Positions 39,013 to 64,000 of a stretch of 64,000 nt of DNA are shown one piece after another. The notes under the pieces are model-generated. The model saw only the letters and a list, made by a program, of their open reading frames with translations. It was not told the DNA's origin and did no database searches. How positions within the stretch are numbered: position 1 is the stretch's first letter; each line of letters starts with the position of its first letter. The DNA is taken from positions 68,164 to 132,163 of the forward strand of contig JBCCVZ010000018.1 of the NCBI GenBank assembly GCA_039194425.1. Direction: 5' to 3'. The translations under genes were made by a program, and so were the position numbers. This DNA is from Acidobacteriota bacterium (GTDB lineage: Bacteria > Acidobacteriota > Thermoanaerobaculia > Multivoradales > J023).

Positions 39013-39119
39013 GTGCCGAGTATGCCAGGTCGCACCGACGACCCGGTCGTGAGCGTCACCGCAATCGAAGCGCCCATGTCTCGTCCAGAGAACGCACCGC
39101 GCTCTGATATCGTTCAGCG

Positions 39120-49562: not shown

Positions 49563-51254
49563 ATGCGTTCCTACCTCACCAGCAAGCCCGCGATTCTCAT
49601 CGCTCTTCTCGCCCTCGTCCTCTCCGGCAGCTCCTTCGCCGCCACCCAGCCGAGCCTCGACATGCTCGGTGGCAGCAGCCAGCTCGTGTGGTACGTCAAC
49701 GGCCCGGCCGACGGCGCGACCCTCGTCATCTCAGTGCCCGACGGCCGCATGCTCGAGGCCGTCGCCGGCCCCGGCGAGCCGCTCTCGTTCTCGCCGTTCG
49801 ATCTCGACGCCGCCCTGCCCGACGGTGTCTACACCTGGGAAATCGTCGTCACGCCGAAGCTGAGCTCGCAGGAGCGCCAGCTGGCCGAGGCCGAGCGCGC
49901 CGCGGGCCTCAGCCCGGCAGTGCAGCTCGACCCCGCCTCGGGCGCGTTCTCGATCCTCGGCGGTTCTATCGTCTGGGACGACGCCACCATCGTCGAGGGT
50001 GACTCCGACGGCGGCTCGTCAGTCGGTGGCAAGGTCGCCGCCGGCGCCGAGGGCCTCGAGGGTCTGCCCACCAAGCAGTTCATCAGCAGCGACCTCACGG
50101 TCCACTTCAGCGCTTGCATCGGCGGTGACTGCGCGACGTCCGAGAGCTACGGTAGCGACACGCTCCGCCTGAAGGAAAACAACCTGCGCATCCACTTCGA
50201 CGACACCAGCAACTCGGCGTCGTTCCCGAACAACGACTGGCGCATCACCGCTAACAGCTCGGACAACGGCGCCGCCAGCTTCCTTTCGATTCAGGACGCC
50301 ACCGCGGGTACCACGCCCTTCTACGTCGGCGCCGGCGCCGGCAACAACGCTCTCTACGTCGAGAACAACACGGGCGACATCGGCGTCGGCACCGCGGCGC
50401 CGGTGGTCGAGGTCCATGTCGCCGACGGCGACACGCCGACGATGCGCCTTGAGCAGAACGGCTCCTCCGGCTTCGCGACGCAGACCTGGGACCTCGCCGG
50501 CAACGAGACGAACTTCTTCGTCCGCAACGTGACCAACGGCTCGCGCCTGCCGTTCCGCATTTTCCCGACCTCTGAAGACGACGCGGTGGTTCTCCGCAAC
50601 AGCGGCGTCGGCATCTTCACCGACAACCCGTCGGCCTCGCTGCACATTCGTCGCACTGACGAAACGGCGAAGATCTTTGTCGAAGAAGCGAACGGCACGG
50701 CCAGCGCCAACGCTCGGACCCTGATGCAGCTCACCAACAACGGCAAGCTCGACTTCCGACTGTCCGACACCAACTCGGGCAACACCTGGAAGTTCGAGAA
50801 CGATCCGAACGCCTTCCTCATTTCGCTCGACGGCAGCGGCGCGACAGAGTTCGGCCTCACCAACGCAGGCAGCCTCGTGATCACTGGCACGCTCACCGAA
50901 GGGTCCGACGTCAACACGAAGGAGAACTTCGAAGCGATCGAGCCGGCGCAGATTCTCGCCGAGGTCCTCGAGCTGCCGATCACCACCTGGAGCTACATCA
51001 ACGACGAGCCGACCGTGCGCCACATCGGTCCGATGGCCCAGGACTTCCACGCCGCCTTCGGCTTCGGCGGCACGGAGACCGGCATTCAGCCGCGCAACCT
51101 CAGCGCCGTCGCACTGGCCGCGATCCAGGGCCTTGACGCCGACGTCAAGGCGACGCTGACCGCGGAGCTTGAGAAGAAGCAGCAGAAGATCGACGAGCTC
51201 GAGTCTCGTCTGGCTGCTCTCGAGGCGCTGATCCAGGCGCAGGCCGCTCAGTAA
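49563..51254 (+). CDS. secreted fibre-like protein with C-terminal S74-like chaperone domain, paralog B
   Basis: ATG at 49563 preceded by GGAGG, with signal peptide MRSYLTSKPAILIALLALVLSGSSFAA. It shares the core of paralogs A and C. The C-terminus GTLTEGSDVNTKENFEAIEP...HIGPMAQDFHAAFGFGGTETGIQPRNLSAVALAAIQGL is followed by a coiled coil. Confidence 0.7.
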   Translation: MRSYLTSKPAILIALLALVLSGSSFAATQPSLDMLGGSSQLVWYVNGPADGATLVISVPDGRMLEAVAGPGEPLSFSPFDLDAALPDGVYTWEIVVTPKLSSQERQLAEAERAAGLSPAVQLDPASGAFSILGGSIVWDDATIVEGDSDGGSSVGGKVAAGAEGLEGLPTKQFISSDLTVHFSACIGGDCATSESYGSDTLRLKENNLRIHFDDTSNSASFPNNDWRITANSSDNGAASFLSIQDATAGTTPFYVGAGAGNNALYVENNTGDIGVGTAAPVVEVHVADGDTPTMRLEQNGSSGFATQTWDLAGNETNFFVRNVTNGSRLPFRIFPTSEDDAVVLRNSGVGIFTDNPSASLHIRRTDETAKIFVEEANGTASANARTLMQLTNNGKLDFRLSDTNSGNTWKFENDPNAFLISLDGSGATEFGLTNAGSLVITGTLTEGSDVNTKENFEAIEPAQILAEVLELPITTWSYINDEPTVRHIGPMAQDFHAAFGFGGTETGIQPRNLSAVALAAIQGLDADVKATLTAELEKKQQKIDELESRLAALEALIQAQAAQ

Positions 51255-51504: not shown

Positions 51505-53166
51505 ATGCGTGTTACCCGTTGGCCCCTCTGGCTTGCTCTCGCTCTCAGCCTGGCACTTCTCGTCCCCGGATTCGCCGCGGCGGAAGACGTCGTCAAACTC
51601 GACGCGAACGGCAGAACCATCTACTGGATCCCGCTCGTCGAGCATGTGCAGCAGAATCTGACCCTCACCGGTCCCGCCGGGTTCTGCGACGAGCGCACCT
51701 ACGACGCCTACGAAACGCCGAAGCTCGACACCTCGGAGCTCCGTGACGGCGCCTACAAGTGGCGGTTGGTCTTGGCGCCCGAGATCTCGCGCGAAGTGAA
51801 AGAGATGATCGAGCATGCCCGCGCCAAGGACATCAAGAATCTCGACGACCTCCTGCTCGCCGACGGCCTGGTCAAGGAGCAGATCGCTTCGGGAGTCTTC
51901 CATATTCGGAATGGTGAGGTGATCCTTCCCGATCCGAACACCACGGAAGATCGCCTGGTCGACGCACCCGACAAGCTCGACATCGTTGATCAGCTGGCCA
52001 ACGTGCCGATGAAGCAAGTGATCTCGGGCGATCTCACCGTGTACAACAGCATCTGCGTCGGCTTCGACTGCCTGGCCAACGAGAGCTTCGGCTCGGACAC
52101 CTTCCGCCTCAAGGAGAACAATCTCCGCATCCACTTCCAGGACACCAGCACGGCGGCCTCGTTCCCGACCACCGACTGGCGCCTGGTCGCCAACTCGAAC
52201 CTGAACGGCGGCGCCTCGAAGTTCTCGATCGACGACGCGTCGGCCGGGCGCTCGGTGTTCACCGTCGAGGCCAACGCGCCGTCGAACGCGCTCTACGTCG
52301 ACGACGGCGGCCGAGTCGGCGTCGGCACCAGCACGCCGGTGACCGAGATCCACACCACCAACGGCGACAGCCCGACGCTGCGCCTCGAGCAAAACGGCAG
52401 CGCCGGCTTCGCGCCGCAGACCTGGGACGTCGCCGGCAACGAGACGAACTTCTTCATCCGCGACGCCACCAACGGCTCGGCGCTGCCTTTCCGTATCCGT
52501 CCCGGCGCCGACTCGAACGCGCTCTTCATTGACACCGACAACGACATCGGCATGGGCACGGCGTCCCCGGACGCCAGCCTCGAGGTCGAGCGCACCGACG
52601 CGCAAATCCTGGTCAACGATCAGAACGGGTCGGCGAGCGGCGGCGCGACGCCGCGTACGCTGCTCCGGCTGAGCAACCTCGGCAAGCTCGACTTCCGCCT
52701 CGAGGACCGCAACAGCGGCAACGAGTGGAAGTTCGAGAACGATCCGGGCGGCTTCTTCATCTCGCTCGACGGCAGCGGCGCGACCGAGTTCGCGCTCGCC
52801 AACAACGGCAACCTGACGATCGACGGCACGCTCACCGAGAACTCCGACGTGACGCGCAAGGAAGGCTTCCAGCCGGTCGACCCGAGCCAGATTCTGGCCG
52901 AAGTGGTCGAGCTGCCGATCACCACCTGGGCCTACATCGACGACCCGACGGTCCGCCACATCGGTCCGATGGCCCAGGACTTCCACACCATGTTCGGCTT
53001 CGGTGGCACCGACAAGGGCATCCAGACCCGCAACCTCAGCTCGGTCGCCCTCGCTGCCATCCAGGGCCTGAACGAGGAGCTCGAGGCCAAGGACCAGCGC
53101 ATCGACGAGCTCGAGCAGCGCCTGGCGGCCCTCGAGGCCCTGCTGCTGCAGGCGGCGGCCGACTGA
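51505..53166 (+). CDS. secreted fibre-like protein with C-terminal S74-like chaperone domain, paralog C
   Basis: RBS AGGAGG, signal peptide MRVTRWPLWLALALSLALLVPGFAAA. It shares the core of paralogs A and B. The C-terminus GTLTENSDVTRKEGFQPVDP...HIGPMAQDFHTMFGFGG...LSSVALAAIQGLNEELEAKDQRIDELE is conserved. Confidence 0.7.
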   Translation: MRVTRWPLWLALALSLALLVPGFAAAEDVVKLDANGRTIYWIPLVEHVQQNLTLTGPAGFCDERTYDAYETPKLDTSELRDGAYKWRLVLAPEISREVKEMIEHARAKDIKNLDDLLLADGLVKEQIASGVFHIRNGEVILPDPNTTEDRLVDAPDKLDIVDQLANVPMKQVISGDLTVYNSICVGFDCLANESFGSDTFRLKENNLRIHFQDTSTAASFPTTDWRLVANSNLNGGASKFSIDDASAGRSVFTVEANAPSNALYVDDGGRVGVGTSTPVTEIHTTNGDSPTLRLEQNGSAGFAPQTWDVAGNETNFFIRDATNGSALPFRIRPGADSNALFIDTDNDIGMGTASPDASLEVERTDAQILVNDQNGSASGGATPRTLLRLSNLGKLDFRLEDRNSGNEWKFENDPGGFFISLDGSGATEFALANNGNLTIDGTLTENSDVTRKEGFQPVDPSQILAEVVELPITTWAYIDDPTVRHIGPMAQDFHTMFGFGGTDKGIQTRNLSSVALAAIQGLNEELEAKDQRIDELEQRLAALEALLLQAAAD

Positions 53167-53230: not shown

Positions 53231-53286
53231 CGTGCCTGCTAAGCTGCGATGACTTGGAGTCGTCCTTCGTCGATGCACCCGATTCG

Positions 53287-55374
53287 ATGCGCCCGCCCCG
53301 CCCTCTGAGCTCCTGCACGTCGCCGCCGCTCGTCGTCGGTTGCCTGGTCGTGCTCCTGGCCTGCGGCTGTGGCGGCGACGACGAAGCCGCGAACGGGCGC
53401 GAGAACCAGGCCGCCGGCGCCGAGGCCCCGCGGGCCGCTCCACCGACCGCTCCACCGACCGGTCAGCCCGCGACGCCGACCGTGCGTACCACCTCGCCCG
53501 CGGTGATCGACCTGGGACGACGCCTGCGGCTGCGCGGCGTGCCGGACGACCCGACGGTCTCGATCGAGGTGTGGCGCATCGACGAGGACGAGCGCGCCGT
53601 CCTCTTCGAGCACCCGCCGCGGCAGCTGCGCTTCGGACCGTTCACCGGCCGCGGATGCAGCCTGCGCTTCGGCCTGACGATCCGGCCGGAGCACTGGCAG
53701 CAGACGGACGGTGTCGGCTTTCGCGTGGTTCTGGAAGCCGCGGTGCCCGAGCCGACCGGGCTCGAGACGACCCAACCCTCCGGCGCCGAGGAGCACCTGG
53801 TCTTCGAGGAAGCGCTGGTGCCGAGCGCCTACGACGAACCGCGCTGGTTCGATCGAGAAGTTCAGCTGCCACCGCTCGATCAGACGACGGTGCGGCTCGA
53901 GACGACTGTCGGTGCGGCCGGCGATCCGTCGTACGACCATGCCGCGTGGAGCAGCCCGCACCTGGTGTGCGACGCGGTGCCGATCGAGCGCACGGTGGAT
54001 CCTCGGCCGTCGATCCTTCTCGTGTCGATCGACACGCTGCGCCGTGACCACCTCGGCGTCTACGGCTACGCGCGCGACACGAGCCCGGCGATCGACCGCC
54101 TGGCGACGCACAGCGTGGTCTTCGACCGCGCCCTGAGCAATGCCCCCTTCACCCTGCCGACCCACGCGACGATGCTCACCGGCCTCGACGCGGCGACCCA
54201 TCGCGCCGGCTTCGAGCATCCGGAAGCACCACTCGCCGACGTCACCAGTCTCGCCGAGCGGCTGCGCGCCGCCGGCTATCGCACCGTCGCCTTGAGCGCC
54301 GGCGGCTTGATGAGCCGGCGCTACGGCCTCGACCGCGGATTTGACGAATGGCACGAGCTGCAGCGCGCCAACCTGCGCTCGACCCTACCGACCGTGCTCG
54401 ACGCCCTGCTCCATCCGGCCGACGGCGCGGCGTGCGGCCCGGTCTTCATCCTGGTCCACACCTACGACGTCCACGGCCCGTACCAGCAGCCCGTCGGCCA
54501 CCGGACGTTCCGCACGCCAGCGGGACTCGGCGGGGCGGGACACGACGGCCCGAGCCCAAGAGATCGTGCGACCGACGAAGAGACCTGGCAACGCGTGCAG
54601 GCAATGCGCTACCACCGCTACCTGCTGCTCGATCGCTTCGCCGGGCTCACCGACGTGATCGACGCCTACGACTCCGGGATCCACTTCGTCGACAGCCAGC
54701 TCGAGCTCCTCGAGCGCTTCCTCGAGCGCGCCGACTTGGCCGACACGACGGTGCGCATCGTCACCTCGGACCACGGCGAAAGTCTCTTTGACCGCGGCCG
54801 CTACCTGGGCCACAGCTACAGCTTCGACGACGCCGAGCTGCGCATCCCGCTGATCGTCCACGTCCCGGGCCAACTGCCGGCACGCCGCGACGAGCCGGTC
54901 GGCCTGCTCGATTTGGCGCCGACGATCCTCCGCCTGGCCGAGCTCGAGGTGCCGGCGACGCTCCCGGGGATCGACCTGCTGGCGCCCCCCGCCGAGCGCG
55001 CCGGCGAACGTCAGCTCGCGGGCGGCTCGCCGCACCTCGGCTCGCTCTTCGTGCGCGACGCGTCGTGGCTGGTGGCGACGCCGACGCGCGACGGCTGGCG
55101 CGGTGAGGCGCGCAAGCTCTTCGGTGCGACCAGCCAACAGTTCGACCACGTCTGGCGCATCGCCCCCGTGAGCACCGACGGCTCACTCGCGCATGCTCCG
55201 CGCGCCGAGCGTTCCTCCGTCGGCGAAGAAGTCCCGCGCGCCGTGCGGGATCTGGTGCGCCAGCTGCATCCCCGCGAGACGCCCGGCGCCCTGACGGTGG
55301 ACGGCCCCGCCGACGGAATCGAACGCGATCCGGAGGCCGAAGCGGACCTGCGCGCGCTAGGCTATCTCCAATGA
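53287..55374 (+). CDS. sulfatase-like (alkaline-phosphatase superfamily) lipoprotein, Thr-nucleophile variant, with about 230-aa N-terminal extension
   Basis: The track start 53254 is a TTG. The ATG is at 53287 (MRPPRP...) and is followed by a lipobox VVLLACGCGG. The sulfatase N-terminal motif is ILLVSIDTLRRDHLGVYGY. The signature region reads FTLPTHATMLTG, i.e. T-x-P-x-H in place of C-x-P-x-R. Confidence 0.7.
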   Translation: MRPPRPLSSCTSPPLVVGCLVVLLACGCGGDDEAANGRENQAAGAEAPRAAPPTAPPTGQPATPTVRTTSPAVIDLGRRLRLRGVPDDPTVSIEVWRIDEDERAVLFEHPPRQLRFGPFTGRGCSLRFGLTIRPEHWQQTDGVGFRVVLEAAVPEPTGLETTQPSGAEEHLVFEEALVPSAYDEPRWFDREVQLPPLDQTTVRLETTVGAAGDPSYDHAAWSSPHLVCDAVPIERTVDPRPSILLVSIDTLRRDHLGVYGYARDTSPAIDRLATHSVVFDRALSNAPFTLPTHATMLTGLDAATHRAGFEHPEAPLADVTSLAERLRAAGYRTVALSAGGLMSRRYGLDRGFDEWHELQRANLRSTLPTVLDALLHPADGAACGPVFILVHTYDVHGPYQQPVGHRTFRTPAGLGGAGHDGPSPRDRATDEETWQRVQAMRYHRYLLLDRFAGLTDVIDAYDSGIHFVDSQLELLERFLERADLADTTVRIVTSDHGESLFDRGRYLGHSYSFDDAELRIPLIVHVPGQLPARRDEPVGLLDLAPTILRLAELEVPATLPGIDLLAPPAERAGERQLAGGSPHLGSLFVRDASWLVATPTRDGWRGEARKLFGATSQQFDHVWRIAPVSTDGSLAHAPRAERSSVGEEVPRAVRDLVRQLHPRETPGALTVDGPADGIERDPEAEADLRALGYLQ

Positions 55375-56822
55375 ACAAGCTCACGTCCTTCTTTGCGCCG
55401 GCCGGCGCCCTCGTCCTCACGGCGCTCGGCCTCGGCCTGCTCACCACGGGCTGCGGCGGCTCACCCGACCGCCCCAACGTGCTCCTGATCTCGGTCGACA
55501 CGCTGCGCGCCGATCGGCTCGGCACCTACGGCTATGACCGCGGTACCAGCCCAGCCATCGACGCTCTCGGCGCCGAGGCCGCGGTCTTCGACCGTGCGAT
55601 CAGCCAGTCGCCGTGGACCACTCCGTCGCACATGTCGCTCTTCACCTCGCTGCATCCGTCGAGCCACGGCGTGAACCAGGGCTGGTTCGAGTTCCTCGCC
55701 TTCAGCCGCGGCGAGGCCGAGTACCGCGTGCTGCCGGAAGACGTGCCGACGCTGCCGCAGCTGCTCTCCGACGCCGGCTACCGCACGCGCGCGCTCACCG
55801 GCGGCGGCACCGTCGGCGCGCAGCTCGGATTCGGCCGCGGCTTCGAGGAGTATCGCCAGGACGCGCGCAAGCTGCGTCCCGAGCATTGGAGCCAGCTCGT
55901 CGACTGGCTGGAGGAGGACGACGAGCGCCCCTTCTTCCTCTTCTTCCACACCTTCGAGGTGCATGCGCCCTACACCCATGTCGACGACGCACGCGGTGTG
56001 ATCGGCGACGAAGCGGCCGATCGCCTCGAGCACTTCTACGCCGAGAACCCGGAGCTGAGCGAGAACGAGGCGCGCAAGGACCTCGAGCGCGCTGGTCTCT
56101 TCCGCGTCGAGGTCACCTCGCGTCTCTACGACGGCGGTATCCGCTTCACCGACCGCTTTCTCGGCGACTTTTTCGACCAGCTCCGGCAGCGGGACCTGTG
56201 GGACGACACGATCGTGATCTTCCTCAGCGATCACGGCGAAGAGTTCGCGGACCATCGCCCGAACAAGATCTACAACGTGCACTGCGACGCGCTGTGGGAC
56301 GTGTTCATCCACGTGCCGCTGATCCTGCGCGTCCCCGGGCGGTACGACGACGGCCGCCGGATCGACGGCCAGGTGAGCCTGGTCGATGTCGCCCCGACCT
56401 TGCTCGAGCTACTCGACCTGCCGATCCCGCCGACCATGCGCGGCGACAGCCTGGTGTCACGCCTCGACGGCGCACCGGCCGAGGCGCGCAGACCGGTGTT
56501 CAGCGAATCGCCCTGCCTCGGCCCGGAGTGGAAGGCGCTCCGCACCGAGAGCTACAAGTACATCGTCGGTTTCGAGGCGCCGCGGGGCGAACGCACCGGC
56601 ATTCCGGGCCCGCCGCTGCACGAAATGCTCTACGACCTCGAGACCGACCCGCGCGAGCAGGTCGACCTCTCGACTAGCGACATCGAGCTCCGCGACCGCA
56701 TGCGCCGTCGGCTTGTCCGCTTCTTTACCGAGGAGGCGACGCCGGTCGGCGAGGACGCGGCCTCGATCGAGATGGACGAAGAGCTCGAAGAGCAGCTGCG
56801 CTCGCTCGGCTACATCGACTGA
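55371..56822 (+). CDS. sulfatase-like (alkaline-phosphatase superfamily) lipoprotein, Thr-nucleophile variant
   Basis: Its start overlaps the upstream stop (ATGA), and the lipobox is LLTTGCGG. The sulfatase N-terminal motif is VLLISVDTLRADRLGTYGYDRGTSPAID. The signature is SPWTTPSHMSLFTS (TTPSH versus the canonical CTPSR). A metal-binding pair appears in SDHGEEF. Confidence 0.75.
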   Translation: MNKLTSFFAPAGALVLTALGLGLLTTGCGGSPDRPNVLLISVDTLRADRLGTYGYDRGTSPAIDALGAEAAVFDRAISQSPWTTPSHMSLFTSLHPSSHGVNQGWFEFLAFSRGEAEYRVLPEDVPTLPQLLSDAGYRTRALTGGGTVGAQLGFGRGFEEYRQDARKLRPEHWSQLVDWLEEDDERPFFLFFHTFEVHAPYTHVDDARGVIGDEAADRLEHFYAENPELSENEARKDLERAGLFRVEVTSRLYDGGIRFTDRFLGDFFDQLRQRDLWDDTIVIFLSDHGEEFADHRPNKIYNVHCDALWDVFIHVPLILRVPGRYDDGRRIDGQVSLVDVAPTLLELLDLPIPPTMRGDSLVSRLDGAPAEARRPVFSESPCLGPEWKALRTESYKYIVGFEAPRGERTGIPGPPLHEMLYDLETDPREQVDLSTSDIELRDRMRRRLVRFFTEEATPVGEDAASIEMDEELEEQLRSLGYID

Positions 56823-59287
56823 GGCCGGCGCCGGAGAAGCGCGAGGCCGAGCAGAACGAGCACGGTGAGGCCGGCGATCGCCAGCCCGGCGTTCCGACCA
56901 CGCGGCGTGTAAGCCAGCTCGACACGGTGATAGCCAGCGGGCACGACCACACCGCGCAGCACCTCGTCGACGCGGCCGAGATGCGCCGGCTCGCCGTCGA
57001 CCGTCACCCGCCAGCCGGGATGCCAGGTGTCGGCGATCACCAGCACCGCCGGCCGCGCGGCCCGCGTCTCGATCACGAGGCGCTCGGCGCGATCGACCAC
57101 CAGGCGCGCCGAGCCCGGTGTCTGTGGCCGACGCCGCGGCTCGAGATCGACTCCGGCAGTGCGCGCCGCGGCGAGCAGCACGCGGTCGGTGGTCGTCGCC
57201 TGACGCCGATTGTCGAGCGCCCAATCCGACGGTAGACCGGGGGCCTCGATCAAGGAGGCGAGGAACACGCGCTCTCCCGGCGCCGTCGGCGACTCGTAGA
57301 CGGTGACTCCCTGGGCGCCGAAGGCGGCGCGCCAGCCGTGACGCTCGAAGAACGTGCGGTAGGCCTCCATCTGGTGCTGCACCACAGCGAACCGACCACC
57401 GAGCAGCGCCAGCGCGTCGAGGTCGAAGCGATGGTCTTCCACCACCGACTCGACGCGCGTCACCCGGATCGCCAGAAAATGCTCGGTCTTGCCGAACCGG
57501 CGATCGAAGAACGCCCGGTACCAGCCGAGGTTGACCCCGTCGAGGCTGTCGATCTGCGGGATGCCGAACGCCGAGCCCCAGTTCGGATAGATGCCCCGCC
57601 CACCGACGTTGAGCACGCGTTCGCCCGGTCGCAGCGCCTCGGCAACGTGTGCGACGTACGGGATCGACGCCGGATCGAGCGCGGAGCGCTGGGGGCGCAG
57701 CGTGTTCATCGCGGCGAGGAGCTCGCCGACCGCGAGCAGCGCGAGCAGCAGCGCGACGCCCGATCGCCATCGAGGGCGCCAGCGCAGCACGACCACCGCC
57801 GCCAGAGCGCAGGCGGCGAACACCAACAGCCAGCGCAGCCCCGCCGCCAACATCACGTCGCGCGGCCAGCCCAAGCGCCCGTAGAGAAAGGCGAACCACA
57901 GGCCGACGATGGCGAAGAACGCCAGCGTGGGGATCCGGCGCACTGTGTTCGCCGAGATGCGATCGATGCCGAAAGCCAAGAGCACTACCGAGGGCAGCGC
58001 GATCAGCAAGCTCCAGTATTGGTGGCTGATCTTCCCGAAGACCGGCGCATGCTCGGTCAGGGTCAGCGGGAAGAGACCGAAGACGCGGGCCAGGCCACAG
58101 ACTGCGAGCAGCGCCGCCGCCCACACCACCGGCTGCTGGCGAAGCTCGCCGTCCGCTGCGCCGCGAGACGATCCACGACGCCCTGCACCCGCGCCACCGA
58201 GCGCCTGCAGCGCGAGGAACGTGGCGAGCACACCGAGATGGAAGATCCGGGTGCCTTCGATCATCGTCAAAGGCAGCACCTGGTAGTCGACCTCGACGCT
58301 GGCGCGGAAGCCGCCGTAGGAGCGCCAGAAGTGCTCCGGTGCGAGCAGCGACAGGGCCGCCACCGGCGATGCGACCTCGAAGGTGCGGGCGTCGTAGTCG
58401 CCCCAGGCAGCCAGCGGTACGCTGGCCAGAATCGGCAGCCAGAGCGGCAGCAGCAGCAGGAACGCAACAAGAATCGGCAGGACTTGTCGCACCGCACGGT
58501 ACCCGACCGCGACCGCCGAGGGCCGATCTCGCCAGGTCACCAGGCACAACGAATGGACCGCGAGGAGCGCCAGGATCGTCGTCGGCAAAAAGGTCTCGAG
58601 TAGCATCGCCACTGCCGCGGCCGTGCCCAGCGCGAAGCGAACCGCCGTCGGTCGCTCGGCGTGGCGCAGCAGAGCGAAGAGCAGAATGGGCGCCAGCAGG
58701 TACGCGTGCACCATCTGCGCGCCGAGCATGCTGGTGTGGAAGCCGGTGAGGAGGAAGGCGAAGCAGGCGGCGAGCGACGCCATCAGGCTGCGCCGCCAGT
58801 GCTCGCGCAGCGTGCGGAAGAGACAGTAGACCGCGATCCAGAAGACCAGCAGGAGCACGGCGTGCAGGGCTCCCGTGCCGGCGCCGAGCAGCGCCGTCGC
58901 CACCGTGATCACCGACAGCTGCGCCGACGCCAGACGCTCCGGACCATGCGTGCCGGCGGCCGACCAGGGATTCCAGTCGATCCCCTCGCCCGTCGTCCAC
59001 GCGCGATGCAAAAACCGCTGCGCCGGCTCGAGCTGCCAGGCGGCGGCCCCGAGGTCGCGGTAGCCATGCCACACCTTGCGCTCCGCCGGCTCGGGCAGCC
59101 AGGCGCTGGCCTCCGGCCGCGGCTCGAAGATCTGGAGCACGCGCGAATTGCGAATCGACGCGCCGCCGAACACCAGGTCAGGGAAGACCGCGACAACCAC
59201 CAGCGCGGCAGCCAGCCACGAGACCAGCCATCTCTCACGCCACCAGACGCTTCGCCGGCGCCGCGCCCGGCCGGTCGCCGTGGTCAC
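56810..59287 (-). CDS. YfhO-like / GT-C-like polytopic membrane protein (putative polymer glycosyl- or phospho-transferase)
   Basis: About 825 aa if started at the GTG (59287) that overlaps the upstream FAD-oxidoreductase stop in a GTGA. It has at least 12 predicted TM helices in the N-terminal two-thirds, a large extracytoplasmic domain, and a single C-terminal TM (LAIAGLTVLVLLGLALLRR) typical of the YfhO family. The competing frame 56457-59072 is RG-rich low complexity. Confidence 0.5.
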   Translation of the reverse strand: MTTATGRARRRRSVWWRERWLVSWLAAALVVVAVFPDLVFGGASIRNSRVLQIFEPRPEASAWLPEPAERKVWHGYRDLGAAAWQLEPAQRFLHRAWTTGEGIDWNPWSAAGTHGPERLASAQLSVITVATALLGAGTGALHAVLLLVFWIAVYCLFRTLREHWRRSLMASLAACFAFLLTGFHTSMLGAQMVHAYLLAPILLFALLRHAERPTAVRFALGTAAAVAMLLETFLPTTILALLAVHSLCLVTWRDRPSAVAVGYRAVRQVLPILVAFLLLLPLWLPILASVPLAAWGDYDARTFEVASPVAALSLLAPEHFWRSYGGFRASVEVDYQVLPLTMIEGTRIFHLGVLATFLALQALGGAGAGRRGSSRGAADGELRQQPVVWAAALLAVCGLARVFGLFPLTLTEHAPVFGKISHQYWSLLIALPSVVLLAFGIDRISANTVRRIPTLAFFAIVGLWFAFLYGRLGWPRDVMLAAGLRWLLVFAACALAAVVVLRWRPRWRSGVALLLALLAVGELLAAMNTLRPQRSALDPASIPYVAHVAEALRPGERVLNVGGRGIYPNWGSAFGIPQIDSLDGVNLGWYRAFFDRRFGKTEHFLAIRVTRVESVVEDHRFDLDALALLGGRFAVVQHQMEAYRTFFERHGWRAAFGAQGVTVYESPTAPGERVFLASLIEAPGLPSDWALDNRRQATTTDRVLLAAARTAGVDLEPRRRPQTPGSARLVVDRAERLVIETRAARPAVLVIADTWHPGWRVTVDGEPAHLGRVDEVLRGVVVPAGYHRVELAYTPRGRNAGLAIAGLTVLVLLGLALLRRRPQSM

Positions 59288-60615
59288 GGCGTGGCCTCGC
59301 TCCGTGTCTCCGCCGCGAGCACCCGCTCGACGGCGGCGTGTGCGAGGTCGATGGTGCCACTGATCGTGCGGTCGGACGGGTAGAGCTGGCTCGACTCGAC
59401 CAGGTAGAGACCGCGGAACGGCGTCTCGTGGCCCGGCACGCGCTCGGCAAAGCCGGCCGGGCACACGACCTGCGCGAACGGATCGCGCGACACCGCCGCG
59501 GAGAGCACGTCGTCGTCGGCGAGCGCCGGCTGGATCAGGCGCAGCGCCTCGACGCATTCGGCGATCAAGGAGTCGTCGTCGCGCCGGTAGCGAGGATCCT
59601 CGCGCGGCAAGTAGTAGGGCACGTAGACGATGCTCGAGCCGTCGGGCGTGATCTCGGGATTCAGGTTGGTGTACTCGATCACCCCGTTGAACGAGATCCG
59701 CGGGTCGTCGACATTCGTCCAGAAGTTCTCGCTGATCGGCCGGCGCAGGCGCAGCACGACGCACACCACGGCGAGGAACTCGTGGGTCGCCAGCTCGTCG
59801 AGCCAGGGATCGTCGACATGCTCCAGGAGGCGATGGAACACCGGCAGCGGCACGGCCGAGAGCATGTGGTCGAACCGGCGCGGCGACGAGTCACCGGCGA
59901 GCGACACTCCGACGGCGCGCCGGTCCTCGATCAGAATCCGCTCGGCCGGCGTTTCGCGGTGGACGGTGACGTCGAGCGCGCCGAGCCGCGCTTCGAGCGC
60001 ATCGACCAAGGTCTGCGTGCCGCCGACCAGGTGGCCGAGTCGTTCCTTGTGGAAGAGCGTCTTGCGCGAGCGGGCGACGCGGTGGATGCGATGCCAGACC
60101 CAGGCGGCCGAGATCTGGTCGTGGACGCCGGGAAACTTGCGGCTGAGCAGCGGGTACCACGTGGCGCGGTAGGCGCTCTCGCCCATCATCGAGATCAGCC
60201 ACGGCTCCGCGCGCCGCGCGTCGAGAGGCCGCCAATCTTCGATCCACGAGGCATAGAGAGCCGACAGCCCGTAGCGGATGCGGCCGAGCAGCGAGGTGCC
60301 GCCGAATCGCAGCAGATCGAGGCTGCTCGAGAACGGATAGAGCCGACCGTGAAAGTAGTAGCCCATGCGCGTCGTGCGCCAGCGCAAGGACTCGCTCAGG
60401 TCGAGCTCTTCGAGCAGATCGAAATAGCCTTGGTCGACGCCACACAGAAAATGGTAGTAGCGCTCGATGGTGACGTCGTCGAGCTCGAACGAACGCGCCA
60501 GCCCACCAAGCTCCGGCGCCGCCTCGAACAGGTGCACGGAGAGCCCGGAGCGCGCCAGACGAAGTGCGGCGGCCAGGCCCGCCGGGCCCGCGCCGAGAAT
60601 GCCGATGGATGCCAT
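59284..60615 (-). CDS. FAD-dependent oxidoreductase (amine-oxidase / PPOX / UDP-galactopyranose-mutase-like Rossmann fold)
   Basis: Start at the internal Met MASIGILGAGPAGLAAALRLARSGLSVHLFEAAPELGGLARSF (GxGxxG + EA...GG dinucleotide motif). Its stop is coupled to the YfhO-like start. Confidence 0.7.
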   Translation of the reverse strand: MASIGILGAGPAGLAAALRLARSGLSVHLFEAAPELGGLARSFELDDVTIERYYHFLCGVDQGYFDLLEELDLSESLRWRTTRMGYYFHGRLYPFSSSLDLLRFGGTSLLGRIRYGLSALYASWIEDWRPLDARRAEPWLISMMGESAYRATWYPLLSRKFPGVHDQISAAWVWHRIHRVARSRKTLFHKERLGHLVGGTQTLVDALEARLGALDVTVHRETPAERILIEDRRAVGVSLAGDSSPRRFDHMLSAVPLPVFHRLLEHVDDPWLDELATHEFLAVVCVVLRLRRPISENFWTNVDDPRISFNGVIEYTNLNPEITPDGSSIVYVPYYLPREDPRYRRDDDSLIAECVEALRLIQPALADDDVLSAAVSRDPFAQVVCPAGFAERVPGHETPFRGLYLVESSQLYPSDRTISGTIDLAHAAVERVLAAETRSEATP

Positions 60616-60695
60616 GGATAGGTTGCGGAACGGTGTGTCGCGTCGCGGCAAGATATCGCACCCCTCTCACATTCCCAAGCCGATATGCTCGACGC

Positions 60696-61700
60696 ATGAG
60701 CACGCCGACGCCCCCAGGATCCGGCACCGAGGCCCCGGCGGTCACCGTCTTCATCCCGACCTGGAACGGCGGCCACGAGCTGCACGAAACGCTCGAGGCG
60801 GTGCGTGCGCAAGAGCTCGATCGACCGTTCGAGATCTTCGTCATCGACTCGAGCTCGAACGACGGGAGCTGGCAGCTGCTCGACCGACTCGACGTGCGCC
60901 GCCAGCGGATCGCGCAGCGCGACTTCGATCACGGCGCGACGCGCAACCAGGCGATCCGCGAGGCGCGCGGCGAGATCGTCGCGCTGCTGTCGCAAGACGC
61001 CACGCCGGCCGACGCGCACTGGCTGCAGCCTCTGGTCGACGCCTTCGACGATCCGCGGGTCGCCGGCGCCTACAGCCGGCAGCTGCCGCGCGCCGACGCC
61101 AGCCCGCTGATCAAGAGCCGGCTCGAGGCCTGGGCGGCGTCGCGCACTGAGCGCGCCGAGCAGCACATCGCTTCGGCCGAAGCGCTGGAGGCCCTGCCGC
61201 CGCTCGAGCGCATGCAGCGCTCGATCTTCGACAACGTCTCCTCCGCCGTCCGCCGTAGCGTCGCGCTCGAGCTACCGTTCGAGCGTCGGCGCTTCGGCGA
61301 AGACATCGCCTGGGGGCGCCGCGCCATTCTCGCCGGCCACACCCTGGTCTTCGAGCCGCGCTCGCGCGTCGTCCACTCGCACAATCGCTCGAGCCTCTAC
61401 GCGCTGCGCCGCACCTATCTCGACCATCAGAACTTGCACGGCCTGTTCGACATCCGCACCGTGCCCGACGGCGCGACGCTCCGCCACAGCGTCCGCTGGG
61501 AGCTGCGCACCGGCCTCGACGCGGTGCGCGAGGATCCGCGCCTCGGACCCGTCGGCCGGCTCGCCTGGTCGGCGCGCGCGTTGCCCCACGCAGTCGCCGC
61601 CAGCCTCGGGCAGTACCTTGGCGGCCGATCGGCCGACGCGCTCGCGCGCCGCGCGCGCGCAGCGCGCTGGATCGACGCCTGGATGGCGCGCGGCGTGTAG
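60696..61700 (+). CDS. family-2 glycosyltransferase
   Basis: ATG at 60696 (MSTPTPP). GT-A motifs are VTVFIPTWNGGHELHETLEAVRAQ, the DxD-like FVIDSSSNDGS, and LSQDATP. It is divergent from the FAD oxidoreductase. Confidence 0.8.
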   Translation: MSTPTPPGSGTEAPAVTVFIPTWNGGHELHETLEAVRAQELDRPFEIFVIDSSSNDGSWQLLDRLDVRRQRIAQRDFDHGATRNQAIREARGEIVALLSQDATPADAHWLQPLVDAFDDPRVAGAYSRQLPRADASPLIKSRLEAWAASRTERAEQHIASAEALEALPPLERMQRSIFDNVSSAVRRSVALELPFERRRFGEDIAWGRRAILAGHTLVFEPRSRVVHSHNRSSLYALRRTYLDHQNLHGLFDIRTVPDGATLRHSVRWELRTGLDAVREDPRLGPVGRLAWSARALPHAVAASLGQYLGGRSADALARRARAARWIDAWMARGV

Positions 61701-61710
61701 CGGGTCCTGA

Positions 61711-63849
61711 CTAGTCCGCCGCGGCGGCGAGCTCCTCGAGCAGCCGACCGTGGCGTTTGCTGAACAGCCACCGATTGTAGAGCGCGGTCCAGTCGTTGCG
61801 CCGCCAACCCCAGCCGTCGTTGCGCGTTTGGCCCTCGAGGTGCACCATGTCGACCTCGGCACACAGCAAGGTGCCGTGCCCCGCAGCGCGCGCGCGCAGG
61901 CAGAGGTCGTAGTCCTCGAAGTCGCCGACGGCGTAGCGGCGAGCGTAGCCACCGAGCTCCTCATAGAGCGCACGATCGATCATCAGGCAGGCGGCCGAGG
62001 CGGCGATCACCTCGCCGCTCTGCCGAGCACCCGCCCACGACGGCGGCAGGCCCTTCATCGGTTCGATCGCCTGCCACAGGTCGAACGCTCCGCCGTCGCG
62101 CCGGAAGCGAGCCCCGCGGCTCTGGATCGAGCCGTCTTCGTAGAGCAGACGCGGCGCGGTCAGGCCACCGTGCTCCCGGTGCGCGGCGACCAGCCGCGGC
62201 AACCAGCCCGCCTCCAGGGGCACCACGTCGTCGTGCAGGAAGAGCAGCAGCTCTCCACGCGCCGTCTGAGCCGCGGCATGTGACGACGCCGCGATGCCGG
62301 CGCCCTGCGGTAGGGAAACAATGCGCAGCGCCGGCGTGTAGTAGAGCCGGCTCAGGTCGTCGAGAAGCGTCTCGAGCTCGCGCGCCTGCCGCGGCTCGTC
62401 GATGGCGAAGACGATCTCGGTCTCGTCGAGCGCTCGATCATCCGAGAGCACCGCCAGAAAGGGCTCGACCATCTCGAACGTCCCCAGAGGCACGATCAGG
62501 CTCACCTCGGGATCGCTCGATCCGTCGACTCCGATGTCGTGGACCCGAGGCTCTCCGCAGGCCGCGACACAGCGCGTGGCGAGTGCCTCGAGCGCCGGCG
62601 CGAGAATCGTCTCGACCAGCTCGAGCGGCCTCTCCGCCTCGGCCGGCAGCGAGAAGAGCAGGAAGTGACGCGCCAAGAACGGATCGTGCACGGCGGGCCC
62701 AGGAGCCGCGAGCAACGGCTGTCGGCGATCGCGGAAGTGCAGCTCGAAGCGCGGCTGCCGCGCCGCGGCCGCGCCTGTGCCGGTGGCGAACGGCAACAGG
62801 GCGATGAAGCCGAAGTCGACACTCTCGGCCAGCTCACCGAAGTGCTGGCGGTAGACCTCGCGCACGTCGGGCCGCGACAGCATGCGCCAATGATCGCGGA
62901 TCTCGATCGACTCGCCGACCGCGGGCACCAGCTCGAACGACTCGACCTGGTGATCGAAGTCGACGCACCAGCCCTGGAGAAAGACCCACGAGTCATCGAG
63001 CACGAGGAAGCGATCGAGGCACAGGCCGAAGGGCAGCGCCGGATCGCCGATGTAGGCGGGCAGCGGCCGGCGCCACGATGGATCCGGGCTCGGTGCGAGC
63101 TCCGACCGCGGCGCTGCCGGTGCGGCCTTTGTCCGACCGAGCGCGGAGCCGGCGCTCACCGGCTCGGGCGCGGGCTCGGAACTTCGAACGCCGAGCGGCA
63201 GCGCCTCCGCCGCGGACGTGGCCACTACAGACCCGTCGCGCGCATCCGCTCCTGCCGTGCCCTCCGGCTCGGGGTCGAGGGAGATCTCCCGGTGCGCCGC
63301 GAGACGATGCGCAGCGGCAAGGGCGCGCTCGGCGATCGGATCGCCCTCCGCCGCCGGCTCGGCCACTTGCTCGACGACGAACCGGCACAGGTCGCTGAAC
63401 GCCTCGACCGAGGTGCATCCGGCCAGGTACTCGAGGTGCTCGACGACATCGGGCGCGATGCCGGCACCGCCGCGGCGGGTCCAGCGGTACCAGGTGCTCT
63501 CCGGGCGCACCCAAAGTTCCAGATCGTGCGGCGCCGACTCGTCCGTGTCGGACGGGCCGATGGGCACGACGAGCACCTGCGCGGCAGCTCCGGCAAAGCC
63601 GACCAGGTCGAAGCGCGACCAATAAACGCGCGCCGCCGACGCTTCGCCGCTCCGTTCGCCGGCGGTCCAGCGAACCGCCAGCTCGTCACCGGGACTGGTG
63701 GTCAACCAGCCCGACACCCAAATCATCGAGCGCGACAACCAAGTACAGATCTCGACCGCCCCCTCGGGCGCCGAGGCCGACCGCCACAGAGGAACTCCGC
63801 CCGACGACAGGCGATAGCGATAGCGGGCGGGCAGCAGAAGTCCGAGCAT
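61711..63849 (-). CDS. large glycosyltransferase: about 400-aa N-terminal domain of unknown function + C-terminal GT2 (GT-A) domain
   Basis: The start at Met MLGLLLP (63849) overlaps the stop of an upstream gene (TGATG). The C-terminal region has SLIVPLGTFEMVEPFLAVL, LFLHDDVVP (DxD) and a CLMIDRALYEELGGY-type acceptor loop. Confidence 0.7.
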   Translation of the reverse strand: MLGLLLPARYRYRLSSGGVPLWRSASAPEGAVEICTWLSRSMIWVSGWLTTSPGDELAVRWTAGERSGEASAARVYWSRFDLVGFAGAAAQVLVVPIGPSDTDESAPHDLELWVRPESTWYRWTRRGGAGIAPDVVEHLEYLAGCTSVEAFSDLCRFVVEQVAEPAAEGDPIAERALAAAHRLAAHREISLDPEPEGTAGADARDGSVVATSAAEALPLGVRSSEPAPEPVSAGSALGRTKAAPAAPRSELAPSPDPSWRRPLPAYIGDPALPFGLCLDRFLVLDDSWVFLQGWCVDFDHQVESFELVPAVGESIEIRDHWRMLSRPDVREVYRQHFGELAESVDFGFIALLPFATGTGAAAARQPRFELHFRDRRQPLLAAPGPAVHDPFLARHFLLFSLPAEAERPLELVETILAPALEALATRCVAACGEPRVHDIGVDGSSDPEVSLIVPLGTFEMVEPFLAVLSDDRALDETEIVFAIDEPRQARELETLLDDLSRLYYTPALRIVSLPQGAGIAASSHAAAQTARGELLLFLHDDVVPLEAGWLPRLVAAHREHGGLTAPRLLYEDGSIQSRGARFRRDGGAFDLWQAIEPMKGLPPSWAGARQSGEVIAASAACLMIDRALYEELGGYARRYAVGDFEDYDLCLRARAAGHGTLLCAEVDMVHLEGQTRNDGWGWRRNDWTALYNRWLFSKRHGRLLEELAAAAD

Positions 63850-64000
63850 CACGCCACCTTGCGCCGCGCCGCCAGCTCTCGGTAGAGCTCGGCGTGGAAG
63901 TCGACCGTCTCGGCCATGGTGTAGACCGGGCGGATGCCGTCGCGCAGCCGGCGCCACAGCTCCGGCGAACCGGCCGCGGTGCGCATGGTGGCGGCCAGGC
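63849..64000 (-). CDS. 3' end of an upstream gene running off the window (C-terminal about 50 aa)
   Basis: The minus-strand frame reads ...LAATMRTAAGSPELWRRLRDGIRPVYTMAETVDFHAELYRELAARRKVA-stop, and the stop overlaps the start of the GT2 gene. The family is not identifiable from the fragment. Confidence 0.35.
   Translation of the reverse strand, partial: LAATMRTAAGSPELWRRLRDGIRPVYTMAETVDFHAELYRELAARRKVA

Follow-up and report, generated by a model that had tools for sequence, protein, structure and literature searches.

A lineage-restricted locus in uncultured Acidobacteriota joining Thr-type sulfatase-like lipoproteins to a YfhO-like GT-C protein, with a possible role in making and modifying an extracytoplasmic glycoconjugate

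The window analysed here, a 64,000-nucleotide stretch of DNA from an Acidobacteriota bacterium, carries at 53254-63849 two sulfatase-like lipoprotein genes (sulf1 and sulf2), a gene for a YfhO-like membrane protein, an FAD oxidoreductase gene and two family-2 glycosyltransferase genes (GT2a and GT2N). Each part is a member of a known protein superfamily, and the cluster is kept together within a limited set of uncultured Acidobacteria. We tentatively propose that the locus is a conserved, lineage-restricted module which may make and modify an extracytoplasmic glycoconjugate in uncultured Acidobacteriota, using a glycan built by GT2 and GT4 enzymes, a donor tailored by the FAD enzyme, transfer by the YfhO-like protein, and Thr-type phosphoesterases. 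The catalytic roles suggested throughout are drawn from homology and gene context.

All six genes were found on the strands and at the coordinates given by an earlier note on this DNA, except that the start of sulf1 was moved. The plus-strand sulf1 gene (53287-55374, a 695-aa gene call) more likely begins at the ATG at 53287 than at the TTG at 53254, and passes into sulf2 (55371-56822, plus strand) through an ATGA overlap. The lipoprotein genes are indeed convergent with the YfhO-like gene (56810-59287, minus strand, 825 aa), the 3' ends of sulf2 and the latter overlapping by 13 nt. At 59284-59287 the GTG start of the YfhO-like gene overlaps, as had been observed, the TGA stop of the FAD gene (59284-60615, minus strand, 443 aa); this GTGA overlap points to translational coupling of the two. 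GT2a (60696-61700, plus strand, 334 aa) and GT2N (61711-63849, minus strand, 712 aa) follow, and the start of GT2N overlaps the stop of a GT4 glycosyltransferase gene in a TGATG junction; only the 3' end of this gene lies in the window (63849-64000, minus strand, from the gene call of the window's own locus, L001).

Both lipoproteins match Pfam Sulfatase (sulf1, 4.7e-38, also aligned with PDB entries; sulf2, 5.3e-43), and in both the formylglycine motif C/S-x-P-x-R is replaced by T-x-P-x-H. The replacement reads T-L-P-T-H in sulf1 (54151-54165, plus strand; translated context PFTLPTHAT) and T-T-P-S-H in sulf2 (55617-55631, plus strand; PWTTPSHMS). In phmmer and profile alignments with solved S1 sulfatases, the Thr aligns with the formylglycine Cys/Ser and the His with the motif Arg, the TTPSH of sulf2 falling on STPAR of 7oz8 by phmmer, so the substitution proposed from the sequence is upheld and a canonical motif appears in neither protein. 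All of the relatives aligned (121/121) have Thr in this column (T83), and the conservation of T-x-P-x-H across these relatives indicates that the substitution is not due to chance; since it is real, a formylglycine sulfatase mechanism is excluded. The lipoprotein paralogues of the clade keep the S1-sulfatase architecture, with an invariant W-T-x-P-x-H at this place except in sulf1, whose variant is given above. P85, D43, H288 and H304 are also invariant across the 121 aligned relatives, as are H99 and H198, with D287 (120/121), H87 (119/121) and H193 (118/121) nearly so; sulf1 retains every family-invariant residue. T83, D43, D287 and H288 are ligands of the metal site of sulfatases and phosphonate monoester hydrolases (PMH), and the claim that alkaline-phosphatase-superfamily metal-site residues are kept stands. 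H304 lies at or adjoining the sulfate-binding Lys of S1 sulfatases. Judged from the conserved His residues alone, a second metal site may be present.

The membrane protein is a divergent YfhO-family GT-C glycosyltransferase, as had been suggested. It passes the Pfam YfhO cut-off narrowly (28.8 against 28.5 bits), and its homologues in the clade match the same model in 18/18 cases. The protein has some 12-13 TM helices, then a beta-rich C-terminal domain in the periplasm, and ends in a TM helix. The AF2 model (pTM 0.86) has the GT-C-like fold: its best 26 Foldseek matches in the PDB are GT-C enzymes without exception, namely AftD, ArnT, DPY19, STT3, Emb, PglB, AftA, Pmt4 and ALG9.

The FAD protein is a cytoplasmic enzyme of amine-oxidase/phytoene-desaturase type in the uncharacterised PRK07233 family (NCBIfam NF005560, 452 bits against a cut-off of 252; Pfam Amino_oxidase, 1.9e-26), with no TM helix or signal peptide. 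It is neither of the enzymes that the earlier note had asked about, a UDP-galactopyranose mutase or a DprE1-like protein. DprE1 has a VAO fold. The bonds oxidised by PF01593 enzymes are usually C-N or C-C and not those of sugar hydroxyls, so the fold found here does not imply chemistry like that of DprE1. Homologues of the FAD gene adjoin GT-C genes of several families (YfhO, PMT_2 and GT87): a YfhO gene is the neighbour in three further loci (L061, L064 and L070), and in L066 the FAD homologue is surrounded by PMT_2, GT87 and TMEM260 genes. Of 70 metagenome loci that centre on an FAD homologue and have sufficient flank, 39 carry a polytopic ORF (400 aa or more, with 7 or more TM helices by a crude hydropathy scan) within 2.5 kb. 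Such ORFs occur at 1.55 per 10 kb close to the FAD gene against 0.45 per 10 kb far from it (Poisson P ~1e-12). The 20 nearest polytopic ORFs comprise eight PMT_2/PMT proteins, one GT87, two membrane proteins with TPR and nine with no Pfam match.

GT2 domains were found by Pfam in both glycosyltransferases for which they had been claimed. GT2a is a soluble family-2 enzyme with no TM helix (Glycos_transf_2, 1.4e-21). GT2N has its GT2 domain at residues ~470-700 of 712, preceded by a rare extra N-terminal region (~1-440) for which 48 cluster representatives were found in 1.84 billion; the protein has no sequence match in the PDB. The 400-aa N-terminal domain of the earlier description is two modules with a low-complexity linker and not one domain. 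In L003, the counterparts of GT2a and GT2N are fused in a single protein.

The arrangement persists in six diverged loci (that of the window, L001, with L002, L003, L004, L005 and L067), where the FAD gene stands directly upstream of the YfhO gene and is accompanied by a sulf2-type gene, at 43-65% protein identity, and the genes form a functionally linked unit. There are one to four sulfatase-like copies per locus, never zero, and the convergent 3' overlap of sulf2 and YfhO genes is kept in four of the six (13 nt in three, 18 nt in one). A GT4 orthologue occurs in 5/6 loci (~50% identical in L002, L003, L005 and L067) and trimeric-fibre genes in 4/6, and sister loci also have a pyruvyl transferase or MBOAT gene. 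The pairing of sulfatase-like genes with FAD and YfhO genes is confined to one narrow clade: sulfatase-like genes are absent beside the FAD-YfhO pairs of L061, L064 and L070, and from 55 loci around other YfhO genes. The earlier note's surface-polymer modification system is borne out as a linked gene unit, and is unsupported or weakened in its teichoic-acid and LtaS/EptA parts. Decoration of a teichoic-acid-like polymer from undecaprenyl-P-sugar finds no backing at the locus, which has no CsbB/GtrB-type GT2 (polyprenyl-phosphate glycosyltransferase), no GtrA/Wzx flippase and no glycerol- or ribitol-phosphate gene. An initiating phosphoglycosyltransferase is likewise absent.

Outside 53254-63849, upstream, lie three associated fibre genes, all on the plus strand: paralogues a (47343-48995; PF13884, 3.9e-08), b (49563-51254; 7.5e-10) and c (51505-53166; 1.1e-07). 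Each product ends in a Peptidase_S74 (endosialidase intramolecular chaperone) domain, and that of a, with its signal peptide, is secreted. Paralogue c is 48% identical to its L002 homologue.

What the lipoproteins do admits several readings. They might be phosphoglycerol or phosphoethanolamine transferases akin to LtaS, GacH and EptA, decorating a teichoic-acid-like polymer that YfhO also glycosylates; they share the Thr nucleophile and alkaline-phosphatase-superfamily metal ligands, and the EptA, CptA, MCR and LtaS models match them weakly and locally around the DHG motif. To our knowledge, every characterised LtaS/EptA-type transferase, EptA included, has an N-terminal polytopic membrane domain for access to its lipid donor. 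GacH (11 TM helices) and LtaS (5) have such a domain and take GroP from phosphatidylglycerol, and GacH, a sulfatase-fold GroP transferase of Thr type, shares one cluster with the GT-C protein GacL (10.1101/337519). In contrast, sulf1 and sulf2 carry a signal peptide with a lipobox Cys (read by eye as LLAC before G and TTGC before G) and no membrane domain, sulf1 with an extension of ~230 aa before its S1-sulfatase-fold domain. Their scores against EptA/LtaS-type NCBIfam models are 25-37 bits for cut-offs of 500-970, and glycerol-phosphate, CDP-alcohol and LicD/TagF-type genes are found in none of the six loci. Their closest kin in both sequence and fold are the S1 sulfatases and phosphonate monoester hydrolases, not LtaS/EptA: the AF2 model of sulf2 (pLDDT 92.3) has S1 sulfatases and one phosphonate monoester hydrolase as its top 50 Foldseek matches, with no LtaS or EptA entry among them, and residues 37-293 match the Pfam Phosphodiest (NPP) model at 1.2e-13. 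We consider such a lipid-dependent transferase role distinctly unlikely, and this kinship, with the lack of a membrane domain, makes periplasmic phosphoesterases the more likely assignment over lipid-dependent phospho-alcohol transferases. Of the earlier proposal of phospho-alcohol transferases or hydrolases rather than sulfatases, the exclusion of a formylglycine sulfatase survives and the LtaS/EptA-type transferase is not supported. True sulfatases using Thr and metal chemistry would agree with the overall S1 architecture, SGSH_C subdomain included (sulf2, 1.3e-09), and yet are extremely improbable: Thr cannot be converted to formylglycine (PMC5066984), His replaces the motif Arg, an invariant His occupies the position of the second sulfate-binding Lys, no locus has sulfotransferase or PAPS genes, and, by motif register, the Lys-x-His region, a stretch which S1 alignments skip, reads as a conserved T-G-G. 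Recycling of carrier lipid, with periplasmic cleavage of polyprenyl-P-sugar or polyprenyl-PP-glycan to polyprenyl phosphate, would suit a membrane-tethered phosphodiesterase adjoining a GT-C gene, and in B. subtilis UshA and UpsH free UndP from YfhO-pathway donors, which matters when donors accumulate; however, both have unrelated folds, UshA being one of the alpha/beta hydrolases and UpsH one of the metallophosphoesterases (PMC11898649). That a locus can have as many as four paralogues, some of them carrying large additional domains, also suggests several glycan substrates and not one lipid, and we hold this role to be very unlikely.

Two further readings, both unlikely in our judgement, concern the locus as a whole. 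In one, the module would act on proteins and not on a polysaccharide: the YfhO-type protein may O-glycosylate the neighbouring fibres, with the sulfatase-like proteins processing the fibres or their glycans. The fibre genes stand directly upstream on the strand of sulf1 and sulf2, homologues are co-located in L002, L003 and L004, and genes for polysaccharide export are lacking at the locus. PgfM1 and PgfM2 O-glycosylate streptococcal adhesins, and the YfhO-like protein matches no NCBIfam models but these two, weakly and over only its last 60 residues, at 20-23 bits for cut-offs of 1400-1500. Within the reach of their contigs, L005 and L067 also lack fibre genes, and the soluble GT2 and GT4 enzymes, with the pyruvyl transferase or MBOAT of sister loci, point to polysaccharide. 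Alternatively, the sulfatase-like proteins would be general secreted phosphodiesterases or phosphatases scavenging phosphorus, sharing no pathway with the GT-C protein and co-located by gene order inherited in a single lineage. Their family is huge (5688 matches at E<=1e-10) and mostly located away from such loci, a relative outside the clade (L147) adjoins Exo_endo_phos phosphoesterase and PPK2 genes, and the other YfhO genes and FAD-YfhO pairs described above have no such neighbour. Against this, the association persists through the divergence of the six loci despite rearrangement of other genes, with the copy number never zero and the convergent overlap kept in four.

In the glycoconjugate module that we tentatively favour, the GT2 and GT4 enzymes would assemble a cytoplasmic glycan, and the FAD enzyme would tailor a polyprenyl-phosphate-linked donor, at the sugar or at the isoprenoid chain. 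The YfhO-type GT-C enzyme would then move the sugar to an acceptor beyond the inner membrane, and the lipoproteins may act as metal-dependent phosphoesterases via a covalent phospho-threonine intermediate, on a phosphate ester that belongs either to the product or to a lipid-linked intermediate. The lipoproteins would be hydrolases or at most glycan-to-glycan transferases, neither lipid-dependent enzymes of LtaS/EptA type nor sulfatases. Successive action of GT-C and Thr-type enzymes has a parallel in GacL and the alkaline-phosphatase-superfamily GacH, which act one after the other on one polysaccharide (10.1101/337519). The predicted part of the FAD enzyme can be likened to that of DprE1/DprE2 and of the SDR epimerase of pentofuranose three-component systems, which tailor the donors of GT-C enzymes (PMC11127046).

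Six genes make up the cluster, and all of them are recovered alike by ORF listing, by filtering on GC3 and by independent gene calling on the same contig (locus L001). Two sulfatase-like lipoproteins, sulf1 (53287-55374, + strand, 695 aa) and sulf2 (55371-56822, + strand, 483 aa), are joined by an ATGA coupling, and sulf2 is convergent, with a 13-nt overlap, with the gene of a YfhO-like membrane protein (56810-59287, - strand, 825 aa). The FAD oxidoreductase gene (59284-60615, - strand, 443 aa) precedes the latter, and the GTGA described in the earlier note, where the FAD stop overlaps the YfhO start, is present in the sequence. Two glycosyltransferase genes, GT2a (60696-61700, + strand, 334 aa) and GT2N (61711-63849, - strand, 712 aa), complete the set, followed beyond the window end by a GT4 gene, its stop overlapping the start of GT2N, and a second GT1/GT4-like gene. 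The window has a G+C content of ~70%, and its remainder holds unrelated housekeeping and regulatory genes. GenBank has a protein identical to sulf2, from a metagenome-assembled Acidobacteriota bacterium. Long ORFs with coding-type GC3 but zero Pfam matches lie at 40965-44894 (-), 2837-5356 (-), 23222-24541 (-), 25426-26661 (+) and 30239-31405 (-), one of them encoding 1309 aa. A fusion of cNMP-binding and pyridine-nucleotide-disulphide-oxidoreductase domains is encoded 14 kb upstream of the cluster (37375-39213, -), and a related, larger fusion lies 4 kb from the FAD-YfhO pair of a Thermoanaerobaculia genome (L061, 1530-3926).

The same arrangement recurs in five further metagenome loci (L002, L003, L004, L005 and L067), where the FAD gene lies directly upstream of YfhO and is accompanied by one to four Thr-type sulfatase-like genes. 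Protein identity to the window is 43-54% for YfhO, 59-64% for FAD and 55-58% for sulf2; the convergent overlap is again 13 nt in L002 and L003, and 18 nt in L004; and a GT4 orthologue (~50% identical) is found in L002, L003, L005 and L067. The FAD-YfhO-sulfatase module is conserved as a unit and does not reflect chance proximity; its spread is narrow. In sister loci the set is enlarged by a polysaccharide pyruvyl transferase (L003) or by an MBOAT protein with accessory proteins (L004, L005). In L005 the FAD gene is broken into three ORFs (8644-9990) on a contig of 2x coverage, which is probably a sequencing error and not a pseudogene.

Both lipoproteins match the Pfam Sulfatase model (1e-38 to 1e-43), with further matches to Phosphodiest (NPP) and SGSH_C in sulf2. 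The earlier note had read a Thr/His substitution in their active-site motifs, and alignment to solved S1 sulfatases (phmmer and profile) confirms this: the Thr of TLPTH in sulf1 (54151-54165) and of TTPSH in sulf2 (55617-55631) aligns to the formylglycine Cys/Ser, the His aligns to the motif Arg, and the C/S-x-P/A-x-R motif is absent. Among 121 sequences (120 relatives and sulf1, numbered as in sulf2), Thr83, Pro85, Asp43, His288, His99, His198 and His304 are invariant (121/121), and Asp287 (120/121), His87 (119/121) and His193 (118/121) nearly so. In the TxPxH family, Thr replaces the second Asp of the sulfatase "DD". The sulfatase Lys-x-His region is unalignable in every profile or phmmer alignment of the sulfatase-like proteins, and by motif register this stretch reads as corresponding to a conserved T-G-G. 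Residue mapping from sequence only places His304 at or beside the second sulfate-binding Lys of S1 sulfatases, and on the same mapping the sulfate-binding residues (K113/H115 and K375 of PAS) are not retained. E196, H198 and H304 are conserved candidate ligands of a second metal site, and the abundance of invariant His suggests a rebuilt second site that would resemble the Asp/His/His site in the binuclear zinc centre of NPP. The AF2 model of sulf2 (pLDDT 92.3) has the two-subdomain sulfatase fold, and of its best 50 Foldseek matches in the PDB one is a phosphonate monoester hydrolase (PMH) and the rest are S1 sulfatases, with no LtaS or EptA among them. Both proteins end in a near-invariant L-x-x-L-G-Y-x-x tail (~55348-55371 and ~56796-56819; G and Y each 120/121 in the family alignment), which may be a sorting or docking signal. 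Another fetched locus (L147, 10001-13610) encodes a Thr-type relative of 798 aa that shares 47% identity with sulf2; its gene overlaps one for an Exo_endo_phos phosphoesterase on the downstream side, with PPK2 nearby, a neighbourhood that hints at phosphate metabolism for the wider TxPxH family.

In our reading, sulf1 and sulf2 are not sulfatases and perform Thr- and metal-dependent chemistry on phosphate esters. Formylglycine cannot be made from Thr, as the SulfAtlas authors state for other Thr-containing members of PF00884 (PMC5066984). The proposal that they are phospho-alcohol transferases draws on a feature common with LtaS/GacH/EptA-type enzymes, namely a Thr nucleophile (Thr or Ser in those enzymes) in a sulfatase-fold extracytoplasmic domain. 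Transfer from phospholipids in the manner of those enzymes is argued against because sulf1 and sulf2 are without a membrane domain; in a hydropathy scan of both, the N-terminal polytopic domain (5-11 TM helices) is absent and the signal peptide, with its lipobox Cys, is the only hydrophobic segment. The EptA, CptA, MCR and LtaS models give only local matches, far under cut-off (EptA 37 bits vs 561, CptA 36 vs 404, LtaS 26 vs 970). The Phosphodiest model (PF01663, cut-off 23) is exceeded by sulf2 (51.8 bits) and sulf1 (24.1 bits), in both cases overlapping a stronger Sulfatase match, which in sulf2 reaches 147.9 bits, well above its Phosphodiest score. The manganese-dependent arylsulfatase EfAS was considered as a Thr-type precedent and rejected, as it uses Cys61/formylglycine. 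The family is very large, with 5688 of the candidates scored reaching E<=1e-10, and no characterised member was found in the PDB, NCBIfam or the literature searched; literature searches on Thr-type S1 sulfatases gave nothing specific. A single-protein scan of GTDB genomes returned no close relatives of sulf2.

The proposal that the membrane protein is a GT-C enzyme was borne out by its fold. The AF2 model (pTM 0.86) shows ~12-13 TM helices together with a periplasmic C-terminal domain rich in beta structure, and it ends in a TM helix; its 26 best Foldseek matches in the PDB are all GT-C enzymes (AftD, ArnT, DPY19, STT3, EmbA/B/C, PglB, AftA, Pmt4 and ALG9; E 2e-7 to 5e-2). Its own match to Pfam YfhO (PF09586) is marginal, at 28.8 bits vs a cut-off of 28.5, and covers the last 50 residues only; all 18 clade members match YfhO, the best at 3.4e-12. 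D78 and E87, at least 90% conserved and located in the first periplasmic loop between TM1 and TM2, where pLDDT is low, are candidates for the catalytic acid. The clade is small: 5.8 billion proteins yielded 17 relatives at E<=1e-64, and in a scan with the YfhO alignment the nearest relatives in GTDB species representatives are at most 31% identical (Solibacteraceae, Melainabacteria/Obscuribacterales, Pseudomonadales and Bdellovibrionales). In 55 YfhO-centred loci, sulfatase-like genes are absent within 10 kb, and only L026 has a strong FAD-family match (5.8e-26); in four others the match is weak (E 4e-8 to 2e-7).

The FAD protein falls within NCBIfam PRK07233 (NF005560), whose entry bears the name "hypothetical protein", at 452.3 bits vs a cut-off of 252; the match is full-length, over residues 15-448 of a scanned ORF of 455 aa. 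The protein belongs with the amine-oxidase/phytoene-desaturase enzymes; HpnE is the next-best named relative and 3KA7, an unannotated oxidoreductase, the best PDB match. The earlier suggestion of a DprE1- or UGM-like enzyme did not hold, as Pfam reports neither FAD_binding_4 nor GLF and Amino_oxidase spans residues 24-417. UGM identity was rejected: in the PDB a UGM is matched over the N-terminal Rossmann motif alone (E 4e-4). The protein has no signal peptide and no TM helix and is therefore cytoplasmic. Literature searches on PRK07233 and on bacterial FAD polyprenol reductases gave nothing specific.

The genomic context of the FAD gene is the most informative new result. We assessed 80 fetched FAD-centred metagenome loci together with L061-L066, of which 70 had sufficient flank, counting as polytopic any ORF with at least 7 TM helices and at least 400 aa. 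Such an ORF lies within 2.5 kb of the FAD gene in 39/70 loci, and these ORFs number 1.55 per 10 kb close to it vs 0.45 per 10 kb at distances above 4 kb (Poisson P ~1e-12). By Pfam, the 20 nearest polytopic ORFs comprise eight PMT_2/PMT, one GT87, two membrane+TPR proteins and nine without a match. Where FAD is ~60% identical to the window's (L061, L064, L070), the neighbour is a YfhO gene 25-29% identical to that of the window; at 49% identity (L066) the neighbours are GT87, PMT_2 and TMEM260, so that three different GT-C families surround one flavoenzyme gene; and at 44-47% identity (L062, L063) there is no GT-C gene. The L066 homologue is flanked by GT87, DUF362 and PMT_2 genes (7415-13241), with the TMEM260-like gene at the contig edge (20915-21371). 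Since GT-C enzymes of different families share a polyprenyl-phosphate-linked donor, we infer from gene context that the flavoenzyme would tailor this lipid-linked donor or the donor's lipid. SAM-methyltransferase domains are fused to a YfhO homologue (P0132, 1140 aa) and to a FAD homologue (P0201, 764 aa), and in L064 (11251-12147) and L065 (11305-12189) the FAD gene is followed by a coupled methyltransferase gene; the window has no gene of this kind.

Both GT2 proteins exceed the Pfam Glycos_transf_2 cut-off of 23.3 (GT2a 77.6 bits, GT2N 29.9 bits), are soluble, with no TM helices, and match MftF/EpsD-type models, not GtrB or ArnC. Residues ~1-440 of GT2N (62530-63849, -) form a rare region, present in 48 of 1.84 billion cluster representatives; its second module (~residues 260-430) occurs elsewhere alone or repeated up to five times. 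An internal repeat within the region is not significant (E 1.1), and GT2N has no match among PDB sequences. In L003 a 798-aa fusion (1735-4131, -) combines a GT2N-like N-terminal module, a GT2 domain and a GT2a-like domain (48% identical to GT2a), and because of this fusion the GT2a and GT2N of the window probably act as a pair. Canonical multi-component glycosylation requires a membrane-linked GT-A making C55-P-sugar, a GtrA-type or other flippase, and a GT-C (PMC8035078). An adjacent polyprenyl-P-sugar GT-A and a GtrA/Wzx/MATE flippase are absent from the locus, and no other ORF with at least three TM helices lies in 44-64 kb, in L001 or in the 4 kb past the window. The donor synthase, flippase and export route must be encoded elsewhere. 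None of the six loci carries glycerol- or ribitol-phosphate genes, leaving the "teichoic-acid-like" polymer of the earlier note with no direct support, nor do they carry sulfotransferase genes.

Directly upstream of sulf1 and sulf2 and on the same strand are three tandem paralogues, each with a signal peptide and a C-terminal Peptidase_S74 domain (47343-48995, 49563-51254 and 51505-53166, all +), preceded by a TPR protein. Proteins with this endosialidase-type intramolecular-chaperone domain form trimeric, self-cleaving fibres, as in phage tailspikes; no other phage genes lie near these. Fibre homologues are encoded in L002 (5516-7195), L003 (7385-8086 and 17386-18000) and L004 (14585-15145). 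In a rival, less likely explanation, the fibres may be the acceptor of the GT-C, or they may share the same surface layer. A counterpart of the PMT_2+TPR protein of L002 was sought in the window, where only the soluble TPR protein upstream was found.

All components belong to known superfamilies, and it is the subfamilies and their combination that are uncharacterised. What stands of the original proposal is a linked surface-glycoconjugate modification system with a GT-C enzyme and non-sulfatase Thr enzymes; its phospho-alcohol transferases, teichoic-acid-like polymers and DprE1/UGM-like flavoenzyme went too far into specifics. A wider reading, which we consider rather unlikely, joins three statements: that the PRK07233 flavoenzyme is a widespread, unrecognised accessory of GT-C enzymes that makes a dedicated lipid-linked donor, that W-T-x-P-x-H proteins are a new functional class of the AP superfamily, and that jointly they provide Acidobacteriota with a surface glycan containing phosphate or with a coat of glycosylated fibres. 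The donor would then be, for instance, a dolichol-like polyprenyl phosphate with some of its double bonds saturated, or a polyprenyl-P-sugar that has been oxidised or epimerised, and the W-T-x-P-x-H proteins would be S1-sulfatase scaffolds rebuilt as Thr- and metal-dependent glycan phosphodiesterases or phosphotransferases. The superfamily of sulfatases and NPP-type phosphodiesterases is a model for enzyme promiscuity, and these proteins would supply an evolutionary intermediate between the two. The label "arylsulfatase A-like" is carried by thousands of proteins; members with the invariant W-T-x-P-x-H cannot be formylglycine sulfatases, and learning what they really act on would put right a large error of annotation. 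One flavoenzyme family found repeatedly beside YfhO, PMT_2, GT87 and TMEM260 points to an uncharacterised step in the making of lipid-linked donors. Acidobacteriota are abundant in soil and sediment and their surface biology is barely known; the leads most worth testing are the FAD-GT-C linkage and the large W-T-x-P-x-H clade.

Among known systems, S1 sulfatases and PMH (SulfAtlas S1_0) are the best sequence and fold matches of the lipoproteins (Foldseek TM-scores 0.60-0.67, query-normalised). The metal ligands D...(nucleophile)...D-H of PMH and EfAS are also found here, as Asp43, Asp287 and His288, and the His of the H-x-P motif is retained as H198. The lipoproteins differ in their Thr nucleophile (not Cys/Ser), motif His (not Arg), Thr for the second Asp, unalignable Lys-x-His and invariant His in place of Lys, and formylglycine is impossible. 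NPP enzymes (PF01663), whose motif is T-F-P-N-H, share the Thr nucleophile in a T-x-P-x-H...H-G context, and Phosphodiest covers sulf2 residues 37-293, whereas the overall architecture and C-terminal subdomain here are of sulfatase type. The GacL/GacH pair of the streptococcal group A carbohydrate likewise places a GT-C and a Thr-nucleophile, sulfatase-fold AP-superfamily enzyme in one polysaccharide locus, the two acting sequentially outside the membrane (10.1101/337519). GacH, with its 11 TM helices and LtaS-like catalytic domain, uses phosphatidylglycerol as its source of glycerol phosphate (10.1101/337519), in contrast to the soluble lipoproteins here with their two-subdomain S1-sulfatase architecture and T-x-P-x-H motif.

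The CsbB/GtcA/YfhO and GtlA/GtlB systems resemble this locus in a YfhO-family GT-C with ~12-13 TM helices, an extracytoplasmic C-terminal domain and a glycan-synthesis gene setting (PMC8035078). Unlike in those Gram-positive systems, the host is a diderm Acidobacterium, the locus has neither a CsbB/GtrB-type GT-A nor a GtrA-type flippase, and YfhO is coupled to an FAD oxidoreductase; the YfhO-like protein is ~25-30% identical even to other Gram-negative homologues. Redox enzymes that tailor GT-C donors have precedents in DprE1/DprE2, which serve Emb/Aft, and in the SDR epimerase (ORF13) of pentofuranose three-component systems (PMC11127046). The FAD protein is of the PF01593/PRK07233 type, unlike DprE1 (VAO-type FAD fold) and ORF13 (SDR), and no UbiA-like polyprenyl phosphoribose synthase or MATE flippase accompanies it. 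It shares with them a genetic tie between a redox enzyme of the cytoplasm and a GT-C and, by analogy, may likewise tailor the polyprenyl-phosphate-sugar donor of its GT-C.
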